The notes beneath the pieces are model-generated. The model saw only the letters and a program-made list of their open reading frames with translations. It was not told where the DNA came from and did no database searches. DNA of 57,641 nt, taken from the IMG/VR virus record IMGVR_UViG_3300021438_000003, positions 1 through 57,641 of that record; one strand, given 5' to 3'. The stretch comes from a virus (Duplodnaviria; Caudoviricetes). This document shows positions 2,782-57,641 of this stretch, piece after piece. The translations under genes and the position numbers were made by a program. Numbering within the stretch: position 1 is the stretch's first letter; each line of letters begins with the position of its first letter.

Positions 2782-3021
2782 TCAATCATCATGTTTACTA
2801 CTAAAAATAATCTCATTTGTTTTTATATCTACAACCCGTATTTCATCATCAGTAGTATTTACTATCTTGTCATAATGATCCGAATTTAGGAATAGGTGAA
2901 AGTCAGTTAAGCTTGTGAATTCCAGATTTTCAAACTTTAACCCTGTTTTAGGTTCTATTACGCTAAGTTTATATTTAGGTTTTAAGTTTTCTTCTTTTAA
3001 TATTTCTTTAAATCTATTCAT
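2782..3021 (-). CDS. Hypothetical protein (likely start MNRFK at 3021)
   Basis: GAGGACTG RBS; the upstream part of the track ORF is occupied by the 3036..3215 gene. Confidence 0.7.
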   Translation of the reverse strand: MNRFKEILKEENLKPKYKLSVIEPKTGLKFENLEFTSLTDFHLFLNSDHYDKIVNTTDDEIRVVDIKTNEIIFSSKHDD

Positions 3022-3035
3022 AATTCCAGTCCTCA

Positions 3036-3215
3036 CTATATTGTTGATAAAACCCAAGTCATTGTGTTTGTTAACGCCAGTATACATAAGAATATCATCA
3101 TGACCTTGTCCCTTGGTATTCTAACATATATAACATTATCATTCTTAAAAGTTACATAAACGTATTTGGCAATTAATAAAAATGATGTAAGTATTACAAT
3201 TGATAAGCCGTTCAT
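3036..3215 (-). CDS. 59-aa two-TM membrane protein (not in ORF track)
   Basis: MNGLSIVILTSFLLIAKYVYV...VMMIFLCILALTNTMTWVLSTI*; AGGAGGACTAACA RBS. Confidence 0.65.
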   Translation of the reverse strand: MNGLSIVILTSFLLIAKYVYVTFKNDNVIYVRIPRDKVMMIFLCILALTNTMTWVLSTI

Positions 3216-48231: not shown

Positions 48232-50391
48232 TTAATTCTTCTTTAATTTCAATTTCCATTTATTAGTCTTGCTGTTTCTATGACATTTATATTTATTTAG
48301 AACCCTACCGATAGCAACTCGTCTACTATAGTTTATATCTGTTTTTCTATAGCCAAGTTGCTCTAGTATTTGAACTGCACTATAATAATCTGCGTCTTCA
48401 AGGTCAGCTTCAACATCAAAACTATCAATAAAAGCCTCCTCAATAACATCAGGCATTTCAAACTCTTTATTCAGTGTTTCCTGTAAAGAAGTTTCTTCAT
48501 CAGTTAACTGGAAATTACTGATATCGGTTGTCTCCAGTAATTCCTTATAAACCTGTAAAATGTCTATATTATCCAATCTATTGATTTTTTTTACAGGTAT
48601 AACCATGAATCTCGTTGAACCTGTTATATCCTTTAAAAAGGAATCATCGTTAATACTGGCAATAAAACTGGTTGTTCTTTTAAAAGTAACAGGTCTTGCT
48701 AGATATTTTATATTCAATGTATCATCAGGTCTTCCAAAGAAAGCTTTAAACCCGTTAATATCTGTCTTCTTGAAAGACTGTTCCAGTTCTGCTAATTCAG
48801 TTATTAAAAACTTTATATTACCCAGTATATTCATATCGTTATTGGTATCAAGGAAACGACCTGTACCTATATGGCTATTTCTTAAATAAGAGGGTAAAAG
48901 GTTCAATACCCATGTTGTTTTACCCATGTTCTGAGGTCCTTTTAAAACAAGCAGGTATCTTCCTATATCTTTAATTTCATCATCATTTAAGGCCAGATAT
49001 AACATCTGCTGTGTCCATTTTAAAAGATAGATGTTTCTCAGTTTTTTATAATTTTCGTTAACCTCAAGTGTATTATAAAAATCATCAAGTCTAGATTTCC
49101 CATCCCAGATAACGTTATTAATAACTTCTCTAAAACTGTTAATCTTATTTTTTTCAGACAGCATATGTAAATATAAAGGAACATTACCTTTATTCATGTT
49201 ATTTAGCTCCATAAGTGATACCATTAATCCTGTTAATATGTTATCGTCTGAGTTATTAATCGATGATATGATTCTTTTGGTTATCACATCATACGCTACT
49301 GCTACTTTATACCTCCTACACATCACCTCAAAATTTTCAAAAGTACTTTTTATTCCTATTGGTGTAAGCTCGCCGTTTTTAGTTCTTTTATATTTTATAT
49401 GTATAAAACTTTCTTCATTTTCTTCCCCAAAAATAGATAGTTCATTATAAGTAATATCTACCTTTAAAGCTGATGGTGTTTTTTTTTTATTGTTAACCAA
49501 TTTAATAATTGATCCAAAAGTAACAGGATTATCAATTTTTTTTGTTAGACTTTTATATTTAAGTCTGCATTCCTGTTTAATTCTTTCTTCAGAGTAACGA
49601 CTATCAGTTAAACTCCAGTCGGTAAATATCTGTAGCCCCTCTTCTGTTCCTTTAAACTGATGGTGAAGAGCCTGACACACCTTAAACCATTCATGGTAAC
49701 TGGTCTCACTGCAATCGTAGTTACCAAGTGTTTCTATAATCCTTTCCCTTGTTACATTAGGTAAAGGTGTATTATTACTTATAGCTATAAAGGTTTTCAG
49801 CTCATCATCTTCTTCTTTTTTAATTCCCTCTTTGAGAGCAATATAATCATCAACCTTTACAAGCTCTTTTATGTTTTTACCGGTTCTGAACTCATCACTT
49901 ACCTTATTCGGTAAATACATGAGTTGAGAGGGGGTAAAACTGGACTCATCTGTTACAGCTTTTAAAAGTTTATGTGAGAATAACTTAAGTGCTAATTCAC
50001 TACCAAGTTTAGCATAATTTTCCTTATCTACATTCTTATCAATAAAAAGTAATATCCGAGCTCTTGGCTTAATTAAAGTACTGCTACTAGTGGTGTAATA
50101 AATGTAAGTATAATTACCAAGACTGTTTTCAATCTCATTCTTTAAACTATCAAAATCCTCTTCATAGCCGTCAAGATCAAATGTTAAAATACTACGTGAT
50201 GTTAAATTCTCGCCCGATCTCCTATTATCCTTAAAAGAGCCACAGACCATAGCTCCTAAATTCTTTTTACCAGTGAAAGGTTTTACGGCTACTTTTTTAA
50301 AGTAACTTAAAATCTCTTCAAAACTTAACTCCTCTCGGCTAGCTATAACATCAGTGCAGTTGTTGAAAAAACTGATACAGTACTTTTTCAT
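48232..50391 (-). CDS. Primase-helicase (AEP-like + PriCT-2 + VapE ATPase)
   Basis: FDLD and Y.T.S...PRAR; Y.EWF.V..AL...DWS; WDG..RL; Walker A GPQNMGKT; FL.D.TG.TRF. Confidence 0.9.
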   Translation of the reverse strand: MKKYCISFFNNCTDVIASREELSFEEILSYFKKVAVKPFTGKKNLGAMVCGSFKDNRRSGENLTSRSILTFDLDGYEEDFDSLKNEIENSLGNYTYIYYTTSSSTLIKPRARILLFIDKNVDKENYAKLGSELALKLFSHKLLKAVTDESSFTPSQLMYLPNKVSDEFRTGKNIKELVKVDDYIALKEGIKKEEDDELKTFIAISNNTPLPNVTRERIIETLGNYDCSETSYHEWFKVCQALHHQFKGTEEGLQIFTDWSLTDSRYSEERIKQECRLKYKSLTKKIDNPVTFGSIIKLVNNKKKTPSALKVDITYNELSIFGEENEESFIHIKYKRTKNGELTPIGIKSTFENFEVMCRRYKVAVAYDVITKRIISSINNSDDNILTGLMVSLMELNNMNKGNVPLYLHMLSEKNKINSFREVINNVIWDGKSRLDDFYNTLEVNENYKKLRNIYLLKWTQQMLYLALNDDEIKDIGRYLLVLKGPQNMGKTTWVLNLLPSYLRNSHIGTGRFLDTNNDMNILGNIKFLITELAELEQSFKKTDINGFKAFFGRPDDTLNIKYLARPVTFKRTTSFIASINDDSFLKDITGSTRFMVIPVKKINRLDNIDILQVYKELLETTDISNFQLTDEETSLQETLNKEFEMPDVIEEAFIDSFDVEADLEDADYYSAVQILEQLGYRKTDINYSRRVAIGRVLNKYKCHRNSKTNKWKLKLKKN

Positions 50392-50427
50392 TGTTAAGTT
50401 TTAAATAAATTAAAGTAGAGACGTTAT

Positions 50428-50559
50428 TTAGTGATGCAGTTTTAAACGAATAAGATTATCCATGCTACTTTCTTTTTTATTCTTAACCATGAAATAACTA
50501 CTCGTTAATAATACAACTATTATTAAAGCTGCAAATAACCTTAATTTAACTGTTTCCAT
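50428..50559 (-). CDS. 43-aa TM peptide (not in ORF track)
   Basis: METVKLRLFAALIIVVLLTSSYFMVK...*. Confidence 0.5.
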   Translation of the reverse strand: METVKLRLFAALIIVVLLTSSYFMVKNKKESSMDNLIRLKLHH

Positions 50560-50737
50560 CTTCTCTTTTCTGTCCATATTCAATTCTCATTTTCAAATCT
50601 GCATCAAGTAATTTTTTGTTGAAATCAACATGCATCGCTTCAATTATTTTCTCATACCTTTTTCTTTGCTTATATAATGAAAAATAAAACAAACCTATCC
50701 ATATTAAAAAATTTATAATTGGCCCTATTATGTCCAT
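50546..50737 (-). CDS. Single-TM small protein
   Basis: IINFLIWIGLFYFSLY segment. Confidence 0.65.
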   Translation of the reverse strand: MDIIGPIINFLIWIGLFYFSLYKQRKRYEKIIEAMHVDFNKKLLDADLKMRIEYGQKREDGNS

Positions 50738-50740
50738 AGA

Positions 50741-50962
50741 TCACCTTATTACTATCCAATCGTTGAACATACAATCTTCCATTTCACATACTAATGAATA
50801 AGGCTCTAGTTTATCGGTAAAAGCAGTACCCGGTTTATTATAGGATTGATAATATTTATACAATTTATCCTGTATTTTCATGATCATATAATCGCTATTT
50901 TCTCTAGTAATGATATTGAAACGATTATTGTAAATAAATCTTATTGCGTCATTGATTTTCAT
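50741..50962 (-). CDS. Tad2/DUF2829-like paralogue
   Basis: MKINDAIRFI...ITR...EDCMFNDWIVI; GGGAGGACTAA RBS. Confidence 0.6.
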   Translation of the reverse strand: MKINDAIRFIYNNRFNIITRENSDYMIMKIQDKLYKYYQSYNKPGTAFTDKLEPYSLVCEMEDCMFNDWIVIR

Positions 50963-50984
50963 TTAATTAGTCCTCCCTTAAATG

Positions 50985-51152
50985 TTAATACTTGAAACTA
51001 TCTTCTGTTAAAGTGCTATTATCCTTACCCTGTTTGTAGTAACTTTTAACAATAAAAGTTACTTGTGATTTTCTAGTGCGTTGACTATCCCTTGCTTCTT
51101 TATCGATTAATTCTGTTAAATCATCGTCAACTTCAATAAGTATTCTTCTCAT
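50985..51152 (-). CDS. 55-aa ribbon-helix-helix protein (not in ORF track)
   Basis: MRRILIEVDDDLTELIDKEARDSQRTRKSQVTFIVKSYY. Confidence 0.75.
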   Translation of the reverse strand: MRRILIEVDDDLTELIDKEARDSQRTRKSQVTFIVKSYYKQGKDNSTLTEDSFKY

Positions 51153-51276
51153 ATCTTCCGCTAAATGAATAAATAATTTGAACTTTATATACTAATTATA
51201 ATTATAAGTAAAGAATAATGTTAAAAATATATTTAGTTATTAACTGTTAATTAATTTAGTTTAAAAATTATGTTTT

Positions 51277-51285
51277 TGTGGATAA
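51277..51285 (-). promoter_or_regulatory. Perfect DnaA box (TTATCCACA)
   Basis: TGTGGATAA on the plus strand in an intergenic gap; degenerate TGTGAATTG follows. Confidence 0.4.
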
Positions 51286-51304
51286 CTTTGTGAATTGTGG
51301 GTAT

Positions 51305-51338
51305 AAAAAAAACCCCTTAAGAATTAACTTAAGGGGTT
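51305..51338 (-). terminator. Intrinsic terminator of the leftward early operon
   Basis: AACCCCTTAAG-6-CTTAAGGGGTT followed by a T-run on the minus strand. Confidence 0.85.
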
Positions 51339-51370
51339 TCTACCAATTTAAGAGTTTATAATTTATATTT

Positions 51371-51916
51371 TCATGTATCGTTAATTACAATACTAAATTT
51401 ATCGACTTGGTCATCTTCATTTCTTCTCATTGTAAATCTACCTTTAATAACAAGATTATTCTTATCGGCACGTTCATCATAATAAGTCCAATAGGTGAAA
51501 TCCTCTCTGATATATAGATTGTTTTTATGTTTTGTTGGGTCAACTATATCAAAATAATTGGAATCCAGATATAATTTAGTAGCTATAATTGCATCTCTTT
51601 CCATTTCTTCATAAATTTTCAGGAAAGCATCGTCTATATTATAATTAATAGTACCATTAATTATTGATAAATCATCACCGAGTATTAAGTCATTATAATC
51701 CAGTTCAAACATACTCATGTCATTGTCGGTATTACCCTTAAAATCCTTTATTGTTGCTTTATAAACCTTGGCATATGCTGTTTTATTACCATTTTCAGCG
51801 TTTGCGTAATCAATAAAAGGTGCATCTGTATAATCAATTTCCATATTGGATAAATAAGGAAACATATATTTGAATCTTGTTTGTAACAGATGCTCGAAAT
51901 TTATTTTGTACTCCAT
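51371..51916 (-). CDS. Hypothetical protein
   Basis: 181 aa; GGAGGTAA RBS. Confidence 0.75.
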   Translation of the reverse strand: MEYKINFEHLLQTRFKYMFPYLSNMEIDYTDAPFIDYANAENGNKTAYAKVYKATIKDFKGNTDNDMSMFELDYNDLILGDDLSIINGTINYNIDDAFLKIYEEMERDAIIATKLYLDSNYFDIVDPTKHKNNLYIREDFTYWTYYDERADKNNLVIKGRFTMRRNEDDQVDKFSIVINDT

Positions 51917-51918
51917 TA

Positions 51919-52752
51919 TTACTTACCTCCAAATATTTTTTCAAATAAACTTTTATTTTTTTCTTCCAATGCAAGTTCAAGTCTATAAAAACGTGCTTCA
52001 AGCATAGCTATTCTTTTATTTGTATCTGGTGATCCGAATTCATCTTTTTCTTTTACTAATGCAGTATTAAGAAGTTCAATTGCAAAACTCATTGATTCAG
52101 CTAAAGCTTTCTGATTATTTATTACTTCATAGATTTTTTCATGTATTTCATCTAAATCATTAAAAGGAATATAAGGTATTTGTGCACCTTCTATCTTCTG
52201 TTTAGCTATATTATTTTCAACATATGGCTTACTCAAATAACCTAAGTTAGTATCTTCGTAAGTATTGAATACCTGTTTTTTATCAGCGTCCAACTTCTCC
52301 TGAGGTTTAACAGTAAATCTGATTTTCTTACTGTTGCTAATATCAATTCTCAATGCGTTTGAGGGTTCATCGATACCTCCGTAAAGTATGCTGTATTCAA
52401 CTACTTTATTCGTAAAATCACGTTTATTTAATTTTAAACCCTTTATTTTCCCTAAGCTGATTCTAACACAGGTAGTTTTAAACATCCCGCTACCATTATA
52501 TCTATGTATTAATCCCTTATCATCATTAGTTGGACTAATTACTACCATATCACCGGGTATATATGTTGTATTTAGTCTTTTATATTCCCTGCCATCTGTT
52601 AACTGATTATATACATCCTCACCGATATAAACAGAGAGCATCAGTTTCTTTTCCTTACCTAAAAGAGAGTATTTAATCCTGACCTGATCTTTTTCAGTAA
52701 AGTTTTTAATTTTAGTAAATGATTTTCTTCCTTGTGCTATTCCGCCGCCCAT
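51919..52752 (-). CDS. Hypothetical protein (basic N-terminal domain, coiled-coil C-terminus)
   Basis: 277 aa; AGGAGGACTA RBS; ends SLFEKIFGGK. Confidence 0.75.
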   Translation of the reverse strand: MGGGIAQGRKSFTKIKNFTEKDQVRIKYSLLGKEKKLMLSVYIGEDVYNQLTDGREYKRLNTTYIPGDMVVISPTNDDKGLIHRYNGSGMFKTTCVRISLGKIKGLKLNKRDFTNKVVEYSILYGGIDEPSNALRIDISNSKKIRFTVKPQEKLDADKKQVFNTYEDTNLGYLSKPYVENNIAKQKIEGAQIPYIPFNDLDEIHEKIYEVINNQKALAESMSFAIELLNTALVKEKDEFGSPDTNKRIAMLEARFYRLELALEEKNKSLFEKIFGGK

Positions 52753-52770
52753 AATAGTCCTCCTTGTTGT

Positions 52771-53004
52771 TTAATTTTTAAAATTTATTAAGCTTTCTTT
52801 TATTAGTTCCCTTTCCTCCAGTAATTTTATATCGTATAGTTTTAAGTATTCATCGATAATGTTACTTATTAAATAACTACGTGTTATGTTCTCTATTCTA
52901 GCTATTCTCTCTAAAAGATCAGTAGTTCTGGTATATAATTTAACAGTAACAAACTTCCTGTCCTTATCAACAGGTTGTTGTATTCGCCCTTTTGGTTTTG
53001 CCAT
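52771..53004 (-). CDS. Ribbon-helix-helix (CopG-like) protein
   Basis: FVTVKL....DLLERIA..ENITRS.LI..IIDEYL. Confidence 0.8.
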   Translation of the reverse strand: MAKPKGRIQQPVDKDRKFVTVKLYTRTTDLLERIARIENITRSYLISNIIDEYLKLYDIKLLEERELIKESLINFKN

Positions 53005-53026
53005 ATATACTCCGATTTTATAATGT

Positions 53027-53200
53027 TTATACGGGATTAATTCCTTTTAAATGGGTTTTACCCATACAAGGTTTACATAAGTTACTTTCATATAAACCGC
53101 TGCCTATTCTAATAATTATAGGTTCGTTTATATATGCGTCACACTTGGTACATAAACCGTCATGCTCTATATCGTCTACTTCAACTTTTCTTGCTTTCAT
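53027..53200 (-). CDS. 57-aa CxxC-CxxC zinc-finger protein (not in ORF track)
   Basis: MKARKV...LCTKCDA...LCKPCMG...*; ATGA overlap. Confidence 0.65.
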   Translation of the reverse strand: MKARKVEVDDIEHDGLCTKCDAYINEPIIIRIGSGLYESNLCKPCMGKTHLKGINPV

Positions 53201-53529
53201 TCTACTATCTCCCTTTCAATCATTCTTAATGTACATGTATCTCTTGTTATCTTTTTTAATTCTTCTACAGTTAGATAATCATTAAGCGGGTCTTTAATTA
53301 AATCCAATATAATCTTTTCTTCTGTCTCATCCATTTCAACACGTGATACTTCCCAATCGGAAGAAGTAAAATCTTCTATTTCAATATCTTTTATCTCTGA
53401 AACTATATTTTCAAAAGAATAATCATCAAATCTATCAATATCACTTAAATCAATTTTAGTATTATTTCGTCTTTCAAACTTCTTAATATCGTTCTCAATA
53501 AAAAGTTTTATACATTCAATTATATTCAT
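53197..53529 (-). CDS. Tad2/DUF2829-like domain plus C-terminal extension
   Basis: MNIIECIKLF...FERR...EDFTSSDWEV. Confidence 0.6.
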   Translation of the reverse strand: MNIIECIKLFIENDIKKFERRNNTKIDLSDIDRFDDYSFENIVSEIKDIEIEDFTSSDWEVSRVEMDETEEKIILDLIKDPLNDYLTVEELKKITRDTCTLRMIEREIVE

Positions 53530-54138
53530 TTACTCCTCAAATTTTTCCAGCTGTTCCCTTAGTTTTTTTAAATTATCCTTTATTTCATTATCCAGATAGT
53601 TCAAATAATATTTAAGATCAGAACCATCATCTTCATAACTACAATCGTAATAGTTATAAGCTAAATTATAATCTTTCAAATATTCTTTTAAAATTTTCTT
53701 TAAATTCTGTATTTCACCATAAGAGGTAAGATTGCCTCCTAAGGATTGTGTTATTTTATCTGTTTTACTTTCTTTATTACCAAAATATTTTACAGGTTCA
53801 TTACTTCTTTTTCTAAACTCTATATATTCTTCAATACTTTTGTTAATATCAGGAAATCGTCGGTATTGCCAATATTGATTAGTTCCGTATAATTCTCTTT
53901 CTGACCAAGTATTATTATCATACCAGATAATTCCTTTTAAAAACTGATTGTCGCTATATTCAAAATCTATATTATCTAGGAAATCTAGATAATCACGATA
54001 ACAATAATCTTTATTAAGAACATATACTTTCTGATAATCATGAATCAAAATAGCGCACATTACGTTAATGATAGAATCAGTATTTTCTTTACTTACCAGA
54101 TTTACATGTTCTAGGAATTTTTCTTTGGCATTTATCAT
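53530..54138 (-). CDS. Hypothetical protein (likely start MINAK at 54138)
   Basis: G.IWY.NNTWSER...G...W motif; flanked by ~60-bp direct repeats. Confidence 0.75.
   Translation of the reverse strand: MINAKEKFLEHVNLVSKENTDSIINVMCAILIHDYQKVYVLNKDYCYRDYLDFLDNIDFEYSDNQFLKGIIWYDNNTWSERELYGTNQYWQYRRFPDINKSIEEYIEFRKRSNEPVKYFGNKESKTDKITQSLGGNLTSYGEIQNLKKILKEYLKDYNLAYNYYDCSYEDDGSDLKYYLNYLDNEIKDNLKKLREQLEKFEE
53534..53593. repeat. ~60-bp direct repeat, copy 1
   Basis: Matches 54144-54202 with 2 substitutions and 1 indel. Confidence 0.9.
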
Positions 54139-54143
54139 TTTAA

Positions 54144-54202
54144 TCCTCAAATTTTTCCAGTTGTTCCCTTACTTTTTTAAATTATCCTTTATTTCATTAT
54201 CC
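54144..54202. repeat. ~60-bp direct repeat, copy 2
   Basis: Non-coding, frameshifted copy of 53534-53593. Confidence 0.9.
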
Positions 54203-54394
54203 CAATACCTCCCATTCATTAGATAGTATTTCCTCAAAAGTGAAAACATTATTAGCAAAATCAACATGTTCGTATAAATCATTGTTAATTCTACAGTACA
54301 TTTTACCTTCAAGTATAATAAATCTGCTTGCTTTATGTTCTACAATCAATCTTGTATCCTGTTTTAATCTGGTAAATGCTTCAACTATATTCAT
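54197..54394 (-). CDS. Tad2/DUF2829-like paralogue
   Basis: MNIVEAFTRLK...EEILSNEWEV. Confidence 0.65.
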   Translation of the reverse strand: MNIVEAFTRLKQDTRLIVEHKASRFIILEGKMYCRINNDLYEHVDFANNVFTFEEILSNEWEVLG

Positions 54395-54588
54395 TCTGTT
54401 ACCTCCCACTCGGATGACATTACCTCTTCACAACTAAATTTACTCTCAGCAACACTAACATATCTATAGGGCTTGGTATTAAATTTGCTATATAAATCAC
54501 CATCTATTACACAAAATTTTCTCTCACCCAGTTTAACTTTCAATTCCGGATTCTGTATTATCTTGTTAAATGCTTCAACTATGTTCAT
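54391..54588 (-). CDS. Tad2/DUF2829-like paralogue
   Basis: MNIVEAFNKI...EEVMSSEWEV. Confidence 0.65.
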   Translation of the reverse strand: MNIVEAFNKIIQNPELKVKLGERKFCVIDGDLYSKFNTKPYRYVSVAESKFSCEEVMSSEWEVTE

Positions 54589-54603
54589 TTTATTATCTCT
54601 TCT

Positions 54604-54723
54604 TTAAATATATAAATTCTCATACCCACAGTCGCAATGATATACATCTTTGTCATCATCGATTGGTATAAGCTCATCTACGTAGTATTCCTTACCACAT
54701 TCATGGCAATTTAAAGTTTCCAT
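54604..54723 (-). CDS. 39-aa zinc-ribbon peptide (not in ORF track)
   Basis: METLNCHECGKEY...YHCDCGYENLYI*; GAGGATTAA RBS. Confidence 0.6.
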   Translation of the reverse strand: METLNCHECGKEYYVDELIPIDDDKDVYHCDCGYENLYI

Positions 54724-54956
54724 CATTTTAATCCTCTATCGTTATACCATTCCATATAATTAATAATGTCCTCCTTAGTTACTTTTTTCCAATCGAAAAA
54801 CAAGTCTTCACTGATGATTAAAGGTAAACTTGTATGTACTTCGTATAATTCACTTTGACCATATCTGTATTGATATCCATAAAAGGAATGTAATAGACTG
54901 GGATGTTTGACAAGTTTACCCTTTCTAGCTATCTCAAAAGCTTTAATTATATCCAT
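54723..54956 (-). CDS. Tad2/DUF2829-like paralogue
   Basis: MDIIKAFEIARKGKLVKH...EDLFFDWKKV. Confidence 0.6.
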   Translation of the reverse strand: MDIIKAFEIARKGKLVKHPSLLHSFYGYQYRYGQSELYEVHTSLPLIISEDLFFDWKKVTKEDIINYMEWYNDRGLK

Positions 54957-55125
54957 TTTTAACTTTTTGTTTAAATATTCTATAATATATTGGTAATAAT
55001 CTAATTTTGTTATGTAATATAAAATCTAATTCCAGACAAACCATTTTAAAGCCCTCTTGATTTTCAGGATCGAATCTCATATGATCTATTCCAGTACCAA
55101 CATCTATTATAATTTCTTTCTTCAT
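54943..55125 (-). CDS. Hypothetical protein, NK[IV]R[IL] family
   Basis: FILHNKIRLLP; likely start MKKEI at 55125. Confidence 0.6.
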   Translation of the reverse strand: MKKEIIIDVGTGIDHMRFDPENQEGFKMVCLELDFILHNKIRLLPIYYRIFKQKVKNGYN

Positions 55126-55349
55126 TTTTCTACTTCCCAATCATCTTCTCCTACTATATCCAATAACTGTCTAACATAGAAATTCCCTAAATCACATATT
55201 TTATCAGTATCAATAAATTTTCCTTTTTTATCATAGTTAATAATTACAGTTTCAAACATATGATTAAAATCAATTATTATAGTTTTATCTGCATTTATTA
55301 TTTTATAAGTCGATTTTTTTGCTTCTTTGTATGCTTCAATTATGTTCAT
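55122..55349 (-). CDS. Tad2/DUF2829-like paralogue
   Basis: MNIIEAYKEAKK...DIVGEDDWEV. Confidence 0.6.
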   Translation of the reverse strand: MNIIEAYKEAKKSTYKIINADKTIIIDFNHMFETVIINYDKKGKFIDTDKICDLGNFYVRQLLDIVGEDDWEVEK

Positions 55350-55714
55350 TATATTACCTCCCAATCGTTGGCTTCTATATCCTCAACAGTTACAGCTATT
55401 GGGTATAAATCATATTTACTAAACCATTCTTTTTCTCCTATTCTTCTTATTTGTTTTCCATCTTTATAAAATTCCTTAGCTATATTAAATGCTATAGGGA
55501 TAGGTTCTACTGTATGATACCAACCATTGAGCATTGTTTTACAATTTATCTTTATAATATTATCAATATCAACTAATACAAAATGTTCAGAGTCGTTATA
55601 TTTACGATACATTTTTAATTCATGATCTATTAATTGATATATTACATAAGGCATAATTTCGTGATGGATTTTCTTGCCGTCCTGTAGTAATTTCAGTGCT
55701 TCTGATATATTCAT
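55349..55714 (-). CDS. Tandem two-domain Tad2/DUF2829-like protein
   Basis: MNISEALKLLQDGKKI...NGW and AFNIAKEFYKDGKQIRR...EDIEANDWEVI. Confidence 0.7.
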   Translation of the reverse strand: MNISEALKLLQDGKKIHHEIMPYVIYQLIDHELKMYRKYNDSEHFVLVDIDNIIKINCKTMLNGWYHTVEPIPIAFNIAKEFYKDGKQIRRIGEKEWFSKYDLYPIAVTVEDIEANDWEVI

Positions 55715-55716
55715 TT

Positions 55717-56007
55717 TTAGTCCTCCTTTTTTGTAATAGTTTCTTCATCAAATTTTGCATTTAATTCAATTATTATAGGTAAAAAAACCTTTAGTTCGTT
55801 AAGATCGAATGCGTTATCTATTAAAAGTCGAAGCTGGATACTCAATAACTCATCATTTTTAAATATATAACCCTCTTTATTATCCTCAATCTCTTCCTTA
55901 GTCATGATGCTAAAGTTTTTATTACCATCATGAACTAGGAAAGTATGGTTATTAGGGTTTTCAAAACAGATATAGAGTGTTTTAGGCTCTTTTATCAATT
56001 CACTCAT
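55717..56007 (-). CDS. Hypothetical protein
   Basis: 96 aa in packed operon. Confidence 0.7.
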   Translation of the reverse strand: MSELIKEPKTLYICFENPNNHTFLVHDGNKNFSIMTKEEIEDNKEGYIFKNDELLSIQLRLLIDNAFDLNELKVFLPIIIELNAKFDEETITKKED

Positions 56008-56254
56008 TTATCTTAATTACCATATTAATATAGCCCTGCTCTTTCAATTCCTTTTCTTCCATACCTTCATTAAAAATCATCAAACATCTACGTTTCAGTT
56101 CAGACTCTAAAACATCAAGTCTTTTTCTATCTCCTGAATCCTTAAATAGATTGTAGGTATATACTAGATGCTCATCGCTCATAGCATACAAGGGAATAAA
56201 TATATCGTATGTCTCCCCGTCTTTTATCATTTTACTCATGTATTCTTTTCTCAT
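56000..56254 (-). CDS. Hypothetical protein
   Basis: 84 aa; MSDEHL...ELKRR motif. Confidence 0.7.
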   Translation of the reverse strand: MRKEYMSKMIKDGETYDIFIPLYAMSDEHLVYTYNLFKDSGDRKRLDVLESELKRRCLMIFNEGMEEKELKEQGYINMVIKINE

Positions 56255-56450
56255 TAATTTTCTCTATTATCCTATCTATTTTTGAGTTTAGAATATTACA
56301 ATCCCTAAAAGGTAACGGGTTAACGTAGTTATCCAACATATCACATAAAAAGTTTAGCGAATGTTCTATTATCTGATCATAAGTAAGATTATGTACTTCA
56401 ACGTAACGTTCATCATTTATAAGTTTTATTAATATATGTTGTTCTGACAC
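56232..56450 (-). CDS. Hypothetical protein, paralogue of 56781..56987
   Basis: EQ.I...NLTY...PLPFR...DRI.E.I shared. Confidence 0.7.
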   Translation of the reverse strand: MSEQHILIKLINDERYVEVHNLTYDQIIEHSLNFLCDMLDNYVNPLPFRDCNILNSKIDRIIEKINEKRIHE

Positions 56451-56479
56451 GGCTTCACTATATTTTTAAATTAAATATC

Positions 56480-56767
56480 TTAATTTCCTGAAAACTTTTT
56501 AAGCTTTTCGGAATTTATACTATTTCTAATATTATTCTGAATTATCCAACCATAGTCTTCAAATATAGCACGTATCTGATCGACATTAAGTTTACCCTCA
56601 CTAACCATTCTAGCCATTACTAAATTAAGAGCTAGCATGAGATTGTTAACTATCTCCATGTTAGCACCTTCAAACACAATACCTGTGTCAGTAATTAAAA
56701 ACATTCTTTTAAAGCCGTTTTTCTCGGCTAGTTTTGATAAATCTTTTAATAGTTCCTTTTTGCTCAT
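56480..56767 (-). CDS. Hypothetical protein
   Basis: 95 aa; GAGG RBS. Confidence 0.7.
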   Translation of the reverse strand: MSKKELLKDLSKLAEKNGFKRMFLITDTGIVFEGANMEIVNNLMLALNLVMARMVSEGKLNVDQIRAIFEDYGWIIQNNIRNSINSEKLKKFSGN

Positions 56768-56780
56768 TTTATTTCCTCAT

Positions 56781-56987
56781 CTATATATCTATTCTTTCAT
56801 TTATCCTATCCAGTTCCTTTTTCAACTCTTTAATATTTCTAAAAGGCAGAGGACTAGAATATTCAAGCGTTACGTAAACTAAAGCTTTTATCAAAGTCTC
56901 AACCGCTTCGTGATAAGTTAGATTAAATAATTTAGTACGAACTTTATCATCTACAGTTCTTCTCAATATTATTTTCTGTTCTAACAT
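56781..56987 (-). CDS. Hypothetical protein, paralogue of 56232..56450
   Basis: AGGAGG RBS; shared NLTY and PLPFR motifs. Confidence 0.7.
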   Translation of the reverse strand: MLEQKIILRRTVDDKVRTKLFNLTYHEAVETLIKALVYVTLEYSSPLPFRNIKELKKELDRINERIDI

Positions 56988-57188
56988 TTATTTCCTCCTT
57001 AATAAACAATTCAATATCTTACAACTATGAAATATCGTATTAGTAACATAAGGTTGTCTTTTATAATACTTAACTTCATATGGTAAAATTCTGATCTTAT
57101 TTCGAAGTACAAATTCATTTCTAGCAAAAAGTTTAATATCTTTTATTATCCTATCAATACTTGCTTCTAAATTTTCACTCATTTTCAT
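56988..57188 (-). CDS. Hypothetical protein, NK[IV]R[IL] family
   Basis: FVLRNKIRILP. Confidence 0.6.
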   Translation of the reverse strand: MKMSENLEASIDRIIKDIKLFARNEFVLRNKIRILPYEVKYYKRQPYVTNTIFHSCKILNCLLRRK

Positions 57189-57345
57189 ATAAATTACCAA
57201 AAGCCAGTATTATCTTCTTCTGTTCTTTTAATTTAAAAGACATCAACCTAATTTTGTTTTTCATTACAAGATCACAGTTAAAAGGTTTGTTGTTTCCATC
57301 ACCTATCCATAAAGTATTTATCAAACCACCTATATTTGCACTCAT
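57175..57345 (-). CDS. 56-aa protein, NK[IV]R[IL] family (not in ORF track)
   Basis: MSANIGG...LVMKNKIRLMSFKLK...NE*. Confidence 0.6.
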   Translation of the reverse strand: MSANIGGLINTLWIGDGNNKPFNCDLVMKNKIRLMSFKLKEQKKIILAFGNLYENE

Positions 57346-57346
57346 A

Positions 57347-57445
57347 TCAATCCCTGAATTCTTTTATAACCATAACTGCCAGTGCTACTATACCTATAAC
57401 CATTGGTATAGACTGTATTAAAAATACCATTTCTATATCACTCAT
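57347..57445 (-). CDS. 32-aa TM peptide (not in ORF track)
   Basis: MSDIEMVFLIQSIPMVIGIVALAVMVIKEFRD*; fills the gap after the XRE gene. Confidence 0.5.
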   Translation of the reverse strand: MSDIEMVFLIQSIPMVIGIVALAVMVIKEFRD

Positions 57446-57446
57446 T

Positions 57447-57641
57447 TTATTTACTTATTACCTTTGCAAGATTATTTATTGCTTCCTTTATTTTCTCATT
57501 CTTAATACTATGAAATGATCGCACCAGCTCTATTGTCAGACGTTCTTTAGCAAGCATGTTATTGTGCGTATTAATATCGTATTCTTCAATGAATGAAGTT
57601 ATTGGTTTATTTAGTTCATTACATATCAAAAGCAGTCTACC
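57447..57641 (-). CDS. XRE-family regulator, 3' part
   Basis: ORF-track 57447..57629 is in frame with the ORF starting at 295 after circularisation; ends ...RLTIELVRSFHSIKNEKIKEAINNLAKVISK*. Confidence 0.88.
   Translation of the reverse strand, partial: GRLLLICNELNKPITSFIEEYDINTHNNMLAKERLTIELVRSFHSIKNEKIKEAINNLAKVISK
57515..57641. repeat. Terminal direct repeat, right copy
   Basis: Exact copy of 1-127. Confidence 0.95.

Follow-up and report, generated by a model that had tools for sequence, protein, structure and literature searches.

The window analysed here, a complete IMG/VR virus record of 57,641 bp with terminal repeats (IMGVR_UViG_3300021438_000003), carries on its minus strand seven small genes, six of them within positions 53197-55714 and one detached at 50741-50962. 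Profile comparisons and predicted structures support the assignment of their shared domain to the Tad2-like family (DUF2829, PF11195), with homology extending beyond the terminal motifs. The genes are regarded as rapidly evolving accessory genes for pared-down proteins of the Tad2 fold, and their likeliest role, held tentatively and at somewhat less than even chances, is counter-defence by sequestration of host immune signals. Genes are denoted below by their lower coordinate and are listed in Table 1.

The open reading frames (ORFs) of at least 40 aa in all six frames of the window number 221. Two of the seven ORFs have their real starts at internal ATGs (MNIVEAF at 54394 and MNIIEAY at 55349). 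The N- and C-terminal motifs by which a preliminary description of the sequence had grouped the genes were recovered in full: M[NDK]I.[EKD][AC] at the ORF start and [DE]W[EKI][VK] both occur in exactly the same 7 of the 221 ORFs and the remaining ORFs contain neither, the motifs having been set post hoc in that description and the last C-terminal position having been widened to K for the count. In phmmer searches against the 221 ORFs, 54197 and 54391 formed the sole strong pair (E 3e-14 to 5e-14), followed by 54197 and 55349 (E 7e-4), 50741 and 55349 (E 3e-3), 53197 and 54391 (E 4e-3), and 55122 and 54197 (E 0.07-0.09); for 54723 the best family match had an E-value of only 1.1. The domains are 51-75 aa long and share 17-38% identity with 54197, which agrees with the highly divergent cores described earlier. 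The same description had called the similarity motif-level only, which is a fair statement for single sequences but not for profile methods, as these join the genes. A jackhmmer search of 671 ORFs, from the window and six related loci (L003-L008), linked most members, but is suggestive only, as the 55122 seed also recruited members of a different small family (56232-56450 and L003:4355-4600); seeding the same search with 54723 recruited nothing.

Homology to Tad2 was assessed with a profile of 25 domain units cut from the window and related loci (alignment A3). Against 177,635 distinct sequences from the PDB, the two top matches were ModTad2 (8V3E and 9EIB, E 0.002), the next match having an E-value of 2.7. 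Against 1.84 billion representative proteins, the profile matched 132 at E<=1e-3, and when 130 of these were scanned with the PF11195 model, 113 matched at E<=0.01, 88 reached the gathering cut-off of 25 bits and 17 gave no match. Tandem forms were common among the 132 proteins, with two matched stretches in 48 and three in 3, and these align with 55349 along both halves. The homologues of 55349 behaved similarly: all 15 in the alignment of this gene (A2) matched PF11195 at E<=1, the best at 3.7e-6, and close homologues attain or approach the gathering score. Other searches were uninformative, with no PDB match for a profile of the seven whole proteins (A1), the alignment of which was poor owing to the two-domain protein, only chance-level PDB matches and no Tad2 for 55349 alone in phmmer (E >=0.57), and a best E-value of only 0.0097 for the paralogues against PHROGs. 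The earlier likeness to Tad2/DUF2829 is hence borne out by ModTad2 ranking first in the PDB profile search, by the 88 of 130 profile matches that pass PF11195 and by the fold match described below.

To score the individual genes, a custom hidden Markov model (HMM) was built from 39 independent single-domain proteins (<=80 aa) above the PF11195 cut-off and searched against the 671 ORFs. All seven genes ranked above any unrelated ORF (best unrelated E 0.84), with E-values of 7e-15 for 55349, 1e-9 for 54197, 7e-7 for 53197, 1e-6 for 54391, 3e-5 for 50741, 0.016 for 55122 and 0.069 for 54723 (residues 1-28 only); the 39 proteins were themselves picked by the paralogues' own profile, and these per-gene scores are thus not fully independent. 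Taken together, the comparisons support five genes well (55349, 54197, 54391, 53197 and 55122), whereas the membership of 50741 and 54723 is tentative. In 55349, two stretches at approximately residues 1-53 and 74-121 were matched by each of two profiles, the custom HMM (E 3.9e-9 and 4.7e-6 for the two domains) and one seeded with 54197, which confirms the tandem architecture proposed for this gene and brings the total to eight domains; 17 relatives of the protein were found in a collection of 5.8 billion proteins, three of them with a precomputed PF11195 label. A four-sequence family of 55122 aligned with the 39 canonical mini proteins in hhalign with a probability of 96.3% over 55 columns, and its orthologue in L008 was matched by the custom HMM at E 2.4e-4. 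For 53197, hhalign gave 94.7% over 66 columns and the custom HMM matched residues 1-61; no Pfam match at E<=1 was found for the protein, and its C-terminal extension matched no known family. Close relatives of 54197 are limited to 2 near-identical clusters among the 5.8 billion proteins (word-index search). The two tentative members have leads only from the ESM Atlas, both with a score of 0.88: the top match of 54723 was a cluster with PF11195 on 13% of its members, and the neighbours of 50741 include PF11195 clusters at TM 0.62-0.66, below the bar for naming a family. For 54723, a single 92%-identical protein was found among the 5.8 billion and no orthologue in L003-L008. The isoelectric points of the paralogues (4.3-6.8; median of the canonical mini Tad2-like proteins 4.9) and their net charge had no separating power.

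Fold searches covered 54197 and the N-domain of 55349, using AlphaFold2 models from alignments that contained canonical Tad2-like sequences. The 54197 model (57-row alignment; predicted local distance difference test, pLDDT, 92.6; predicted template modelling score, pTM, 0.76) runs from a helix through three strands and a short helix to a final strand, and the 55349 model (pLDDT 93.8, pTM 0.84) contains two helix-sheet units. In Foldseek, the top PDB matches of 54197 were SPO1 Tad2 (TM 0.64-0.68), with E-values of 0.27-0.6 that fit a query of 65 residues, and all eleven matches listed for 55349 through rank 13 were Tad2 chains (E 0.02-0.1, probability 0.99-1.0). A VIA-align search of 48,161 representative chains placed AcrIIA7/HgmTad2 (8KBI) first for 54197 (Z 7.8, root-mean-square deviation (rmsd) 1.9 Å, 58 of 65 residues), followed by ModTad2 (Z 7.4) and, at Z 5.0, by the third chain. 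The N-domain of 55349 similarly matched ten Tad2 entries (Z 6.9-8.1, rmsd 1.7-2.2 Å, 58-62 residues) before the next entry at Z 4.9. The comparison of monomer models with Tad2 structures, which the preliminary description had suggested as a check, thus returned Tad2 as the clear best neighbours, and both predicted folds are Tad2-like. The next-best structural neighbour of both models was a protein of the phage 812 virion neck (PDB 8qkh chain S, Z 4.9-5.0), from which a Tad2-like fold could also have a structural virion role.

Several results weigh against this assignment or against a sponge function. None of the seven genes reaches the PF11195 cut-off, and six have no match to the model at E<=1; the seventh, 55349, scores 22.2 bits (E 2.2e-4), in a match confined to residues 1-19. 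The weak members fared poorly in hhalign, with a probability of only 19.9% for the family of 50741 and 75.5% for 54723 on residues 1-27 only, and the canonical Tad2-like rows in the AlphaFold2 alignments may pull the models towards the Tad2 fold. Further objections come from the ligand site. According to the parts of the cited papers that were available, here and below, SPO1 Tad2 holds glyco-cyclic ADP-ribose (gcADPR) mainly via W25, N26, W73 and D79 (10.1101/2023.05.01.538930), and gcADPR binding by HgmTad2 is abolished by W21A/N22A and reduced by S90A/T92A/D93A, cyclic dinucleotides being bound in a long beta2-beta5 insertion (10.1101/2023.11.15.567273). These residues were placed on the canonical profile through alignments, and the window domains were added by hmmalign. 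The Trp of the beta1-beta2 loop is present in 30 of the 39 canonical mini proteins and in none of the eight window domains (K, G, A, M, E, R, S and L instead), and the Arg three positions before it is found in 37 of 39 canonical proteins vs 2 of 8 window domains. The position of SPO1 W73, which precedes the C-terminal helix, is occupied by N, S, Y, E, I, K or L but never by Trp, and the insertion that binds cyclic dinucleotides is absent, as judged from the domain lengths and predicted secondary structures. Furthermore, no experiment on mini forms of this kind was found in the portions of the literature covered. The sole ligand residue kept corresponds to SPO1 D79/HgmTad2 D93, an acidic residue on the C-terminal helix that contacts the ribose hydroxyls; this position is D or E in 7 of 7 aligned domains (54723 being unaligned). 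A turn of two residues joins beta1 to beta2 in the 54197 model.

As every known contact Trp is lost, the alignments argue that the window proteins, if they are sponges, would bind something else or bind differently, and they equally allow a use of the fold other than as a sponge. Of the earlier proposal of immune-signal sponges, the Tad2-like family is supported and the sponge role stays hypothetical, the Trp and Asn residues that hold gcADPR being missing from all eight domains. The paralogues might, hypothetically, bind different nucleotide messengers, as was also proposed, a wording kept conditional because both the gcADPR residues and the cyclic-dinucleotide insertion are missing.

Counter-defence by sequestration is nevertheless preferred because the functional record of the Tad2 family argues for it. 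The preliminary description's statement that Tad2 sequesters gcADPR and some cyclic dinucleotides agrees with the literature covered, in which the ligands of the family comprise at least 3'cADPR, His-ADPR, N7-cADPR, cGAMP/cGG and cUMP/cCMP, held in two different pockets and spanning three Thoeris types, CBASS and Pycsar (10.1101/2025.08.24.671296). By analogy, the window proteins would form small Tad2-like oligomers that trap host immune signals in inter-protomer pockets, each paralogue presumably with its own specificity and with a binding mode unlike the known gcADPR mode. In solved Tad2 structures, alpha1 forms the tetramer interface and axis, and the pockets are lined by loops (10.1101/2023.05.01.538930, 10.1101/2023.11.15.567273); the paralogues conserve alpha1 as well as the ED-x(4)-DW strand at the C-terminus and vary in the pocket-loop regions. 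In a homotetramer prediction for 54197 (4 copies, A4), the scores of 0.39, 0.43 and 0.38 fell on both sides of the 0.42 mark (controls 0.00-0.02) and favour neither outcome.

The same residue losses, in all eight domains, are what would be expected if the Tad2 fold were reused as a scaffold or oligomerisation module, acting in host-protein inhibition or carrying C-terminal effector tails instead of sponging, a possible but on balance doubtful alternative. It gains from the conserved helix and strand, which build the fold and its interfaces, from the virion neck protein as next-best structural neighbour, and from the occurrence of the N-terminal module on unrelated tails (53197-53529, L003:6687-7058 and L003:484-921), the last of which also stands alone as 2782-3087. 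Against this, all functionally tested members of the Tad2 family in the literature covered are small-molecule sponges, and the single anti-CRISPR activity claimed for the family was not reproduced, as far as the available part of that study goes (10.1101/2023.11.15.567273). Fusion to other modules is itself typical of sponges, Tad2 domains often being fused to other sponge domains in the portion covered of a further study (PMC12265669), and no result indicated a partner protein.

Scans with A2 yielded seven related loci, comprising two viral contigs, four metagenome contigs and one contig binned with a Bacteroidales metagenome-assembled genome (MAG; L009), and the array differs in copy number between four close relatives (7, 7, 3 and 4 genes). 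Orthologues of 55349 and 50741 are conserved and flank a variable set, 50741 being kept in L003, L007 and L008. Within the variable set, 55122 has one copy in the window and two in L008 but was not found in L003 or L007, 54391 has orthologues in L003 (92% identity) and L007 (59%), and 54197 and 53197 are shared by the window and L003, where the 53197 orthologue is 97% identical. L003 additionally encodes two proteins with a Tad2-like N-terminal module fused to other tails (L003:484-921 and L003:6687-7058). A minus-strand gene of the window at 2782-3087 (101 aa) matches only the C-terminal part of the 145-aa L003:484-921 product and lacks the Tad2-like N-domain, and the domain has therefore been gained or lost as a module at this second locus. 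The window further contains a direct repeat of approximately 70 nt (54139-54207 vs 53529-53598, 91-94% identity), the upstream copy being a non-coding remnant of the 3' end of 53530-54150, and in L003 the tail of this ORF ends a gene with a 45-aa Tad2-like N-domain (L003:6687-7058). Because L003 has this mini Tad2-like fusion gene with the same tail there, the window appears, from the scar-like repeat, to have lost one further Tad2-like copy by recombination at 54139-54207.

Such gains and losses between sister phages, with one copy left only as a 70-nt remnant, could also mean that the majority are duplicates in decay, with hardly any function left, and that activity is confined to one or two; the nearly orphan state of 54723 and the rarity of close relatives of 54197 point in the same direction. 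This is nonetheless improbable, since the seven frames are intact, most have a Shine-Dalgarno sequence and both AlphaFold2 models are confident. The copies are also under purifying selection: the ratio of nonsynonymous to synonymous substitution rates (dN/dS) was below 1 in 8 of 8 orthologue pairs (0.10-0.66, noisy values with low substitution counts), including 0.10 at a dS of 0.64 for the 50741 orthologues.

Immune-signal sequestration by the array can be taken one step further, to a combinatorial kit in which co-expressed, translationally coupled paralogues mix into hetero-oligomers and thereby form many pockets from seven genes, covering undiscovered signals. This idea, which we consider a long shot, follows from the pockets lying between protomers, together with the conserved alpha1 and C-terminal strand and the diverged pocket loops; the two-domain 55349 product would then be a hard-wired heterodimer. 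Immunity based on decoy molecules punishes broad sponges, which would create a pressure favouring many narrow binders.

The gene boundaries have regularities of their own. A Shine-Dalgarno sequence precedes most of the seven starts, 54723 and 54391 having none in the upstream 24 nt. At two boundaries (55349-55367 and 54391-54412), the W-E-V codons TGGGAGGTA that end one gene double as the Shine-Dalgarno sequence for its successor, with an overlap of stop and start codons. Junction repeats of 30-37 nt with 83-87% identity recur at the gene boundaries 54376, 54570, 55331 and 55697. The shared protein ends could accordingly be due to DNA-level constraint, with the TGGGAGGTA W-E-V codons kept as a ribosome-binding site and the junctions kept for coupling or recombination, so that homology is unneeded. 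In the 24 nt before the 55122 and 54197 starts, the W-E-V codons of the upstream gene do supply TGGGAGGTAA, and the junction repeats at three to four boundaries fit as well. However, 53197 and 54723 contain the motifs internally and the detached 50741 has them too, in each case with no gene following, unrelated phages show them as the conserved ends of PF11195, and in profile comparisons and predicted folds the homology runs through the cores, which makes this explanation highly improbable. As a pure constraint it is largely refuted by the custom HMM and structure matches, and a secondary use of the codons may hold. A reading of the motifs as chance was rejected.

The sole relative in the bacterial genome collection is L009, on the contig binned with the Bacteroidales MAG. 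Bacteroidota rarely use Shine-Dalgarno sequences; the strong Shine-Dalgarno sequences of many window genes fit poorly with a Bacteroidales host, which makes such an assignment doubtful. The preliminary description's suggestion of a bacterium living inside eukaryotic cells, with paralogues that bind eukaryotic immune or signalling nucleotides, is the least probable of all the readings and found nothing in its favour in the present analysis, since, even though Tad1 and Tad2 can bind 3',2'-cGAMP, also a eukaryotic signal (10.1101/2023.11.15.567273, as far as covered), no sign of an intracellular host was seen, the nearest polymerases of cultured phages (38-42% identity) are from phages of the free-living Gammaproteobacteria Pseudoalteromonas, Vibrio, Klebsiella and Acinetobacter, and one relative lies on the Bacteroidales-MAG contig.

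PHROG matches identify the virus as a tailed phage, with terminase, portal, head and tail proteins encoded by plus-strand genes from approximately 6 to 39 kb. The minus-strand block, running from 57.6 down to 39 kb, opens with many small ORFs and later encodes a primase-helicase, an exonuclease, a single-stranded DNA-binding protein, a DNA polymerase, a helicase and an endolysin; the seven Tad2-like genes are among the small ORFs heading this block, where they share the strand of the replication genes and lie upstream of them in the direction of transcription. No near-identical DNA to 50000-57641 was found among the cultured-phage records searched. A helix-turn-helix (XRE-like) gene on the minus strand (2-295/57447-57641) spans both record ends, and because the terminal repeat cuts through this one gene, the record probably represents an assembly that is permuted or closed into a circle, rather than one with real physical ends. 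On the plus strand, 21976-26463 encodes a 1,495-aa virion protein that structural and tail-spike PHROGs matched repeatedly, in 7-10 stretches, suggesting a fibre or spike of highly repetitive make-up.

Three ORFs interspersed in the array are outside the family (Table 1). The N-terminal part of the 53530 product matches phrog_3972 (E 3e-8) and L003:7661-8095, and over its C-terminal 76 aa the identity is 74% with the tail of L003:6687-7058 and 86% with L007:11267-11530. For 54604, only weak treble-clef and PHROG matches were obtained, and an orthologue with 92.5% identity is found in L003; a second small Cys-rich zinc-ribbon-like ORF lies near the array at 53027-53200 (minus strand) and is kept in L003, L007 (twice) and L008. 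A second small paralogous pair is located just upstream of the array on the minus strand, 56232-56450 and 56781-56987 (34% identity), with relatives at L003:4355-4600, L008:6731-6937 and L008:7253-7498 and no family match found.

Table 1. Tad2-like genes of the window and other features of the array.
Position	Strand	Length	Description
55349-55714	-	121 aa	Tandem Tad2-like domains: N, residues 1-70 (55505-55714); C, residues 71-121 (55352-55504)
55122-55349	-	75 aa	Tad2-like paralogue, start MNIIEAY; ATG overlaps the stop codon of the upstream gene
54723-54956	-	77 aa	Tentative member; Tad2-like N-terminal helix and first strand, DWKK at residues 55-58, C-terminal extension
54391-54588	-	65 aa	Tad2-like paralogue, sister of 54197-54394
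54197-54394	-	65 aa	Tad2-like paralogue, start MNIVEAF
53197-53529	-	110 aa	Tad2-like N-domain (approximately residues 1-62) and acidic C-terminal extension (approximately 48 aa)
50741-50962	-	73 aa	Detached tentative member
54943-55140	-	65 aa	Interspersed ORF outside the family; no relatives in related loci
54604-54726	-	40 aa	Cys-rich zinc-ribbon-like ORF (CxxC...CxC), outside the family
54139-54207	-		Non-coding remnant, second copy of the 3' end of 53530-54150; direct repeats D3 and D5
53530-54150	-	206 aa	Interspersed ORF outside the family, chimeric make-up

Among the known families of phage immune-signal sponges, Tad2 is the most widespread and has the most versatile functions, and approximately a quarter of the tested sponge homologues have no known target (19 of 84 inhibited none of seven defence systems, in the part covered of 10.1101/2025.08.24.671296). 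Seven diverged copies that are under purifying selection with the known ligand residues gone would point either to undescribed signals and defence systems or to a second, non-sponge use of the fold. Being tiny and easily expressed, the proteins could serve as baits for new signalling molecules from infected cells, as Tad1 and ModTad2 have done.

Compared to known systems, the window copies are closest to SPO1 gp34.65 Tad2 (8SME/8SMF/8SMG, 8WJE) and ModTad2 (8V3E, 9EIB), which are likewise small and phage-encoded by genes lying among small genes ahead of replication genes. Both share with the window copies the N-terminal M-x-[FI]-x-E-A helix, the C-terminal [ED]D-x-L-A-x-D-W-x-V strand and the predicted topology, in which an antiparallel sheet follows the first helix and leads to a short helix and the last strand, and they are the best neighbours of both models (Z 7.4-8.1, rmsd 1.7-2.1 Å, 58-59 residues). 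In contrast to the solved chains of 88-96 aa, the window domains measure 51-75 aa, with neither the beta2-beta3 loop and its helix alpha2 nor W25/N26 and W73, and the window genome has seven such genes, not one, all below the Pfam cut-off. HgmTad2 (AcrIIA7; 8KBI-8KBM, 8WJC) and SptTad2 (8WJD) have the same fold core (Z 7.7-7.9 for the N-domain of 55349) but are 101-104 aa long with a long beta2-beta5 insertion, whereas the window domains have neither this insertion nor the W21/N22 pair.

The mini and tandem PF11195 proteins of uncultured phages (P0034-P0146) are similar in size (48-80 aa), have the same ends and include tandem forms like 55349-55714 (P0046, P0061 and P0111), but most of them keep a G-K-K-[IV]-[RK]-R-K-x-W motif that the window copies do not have. 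None of the papers listed by full-text literature searches was on such Tad2-like arrays. The family and its mini and tandem forms inside the Pfam family are known, and the seven-gene, eight-domain array below the Pfam threshold and devoid of the ligand residues appears to be new.

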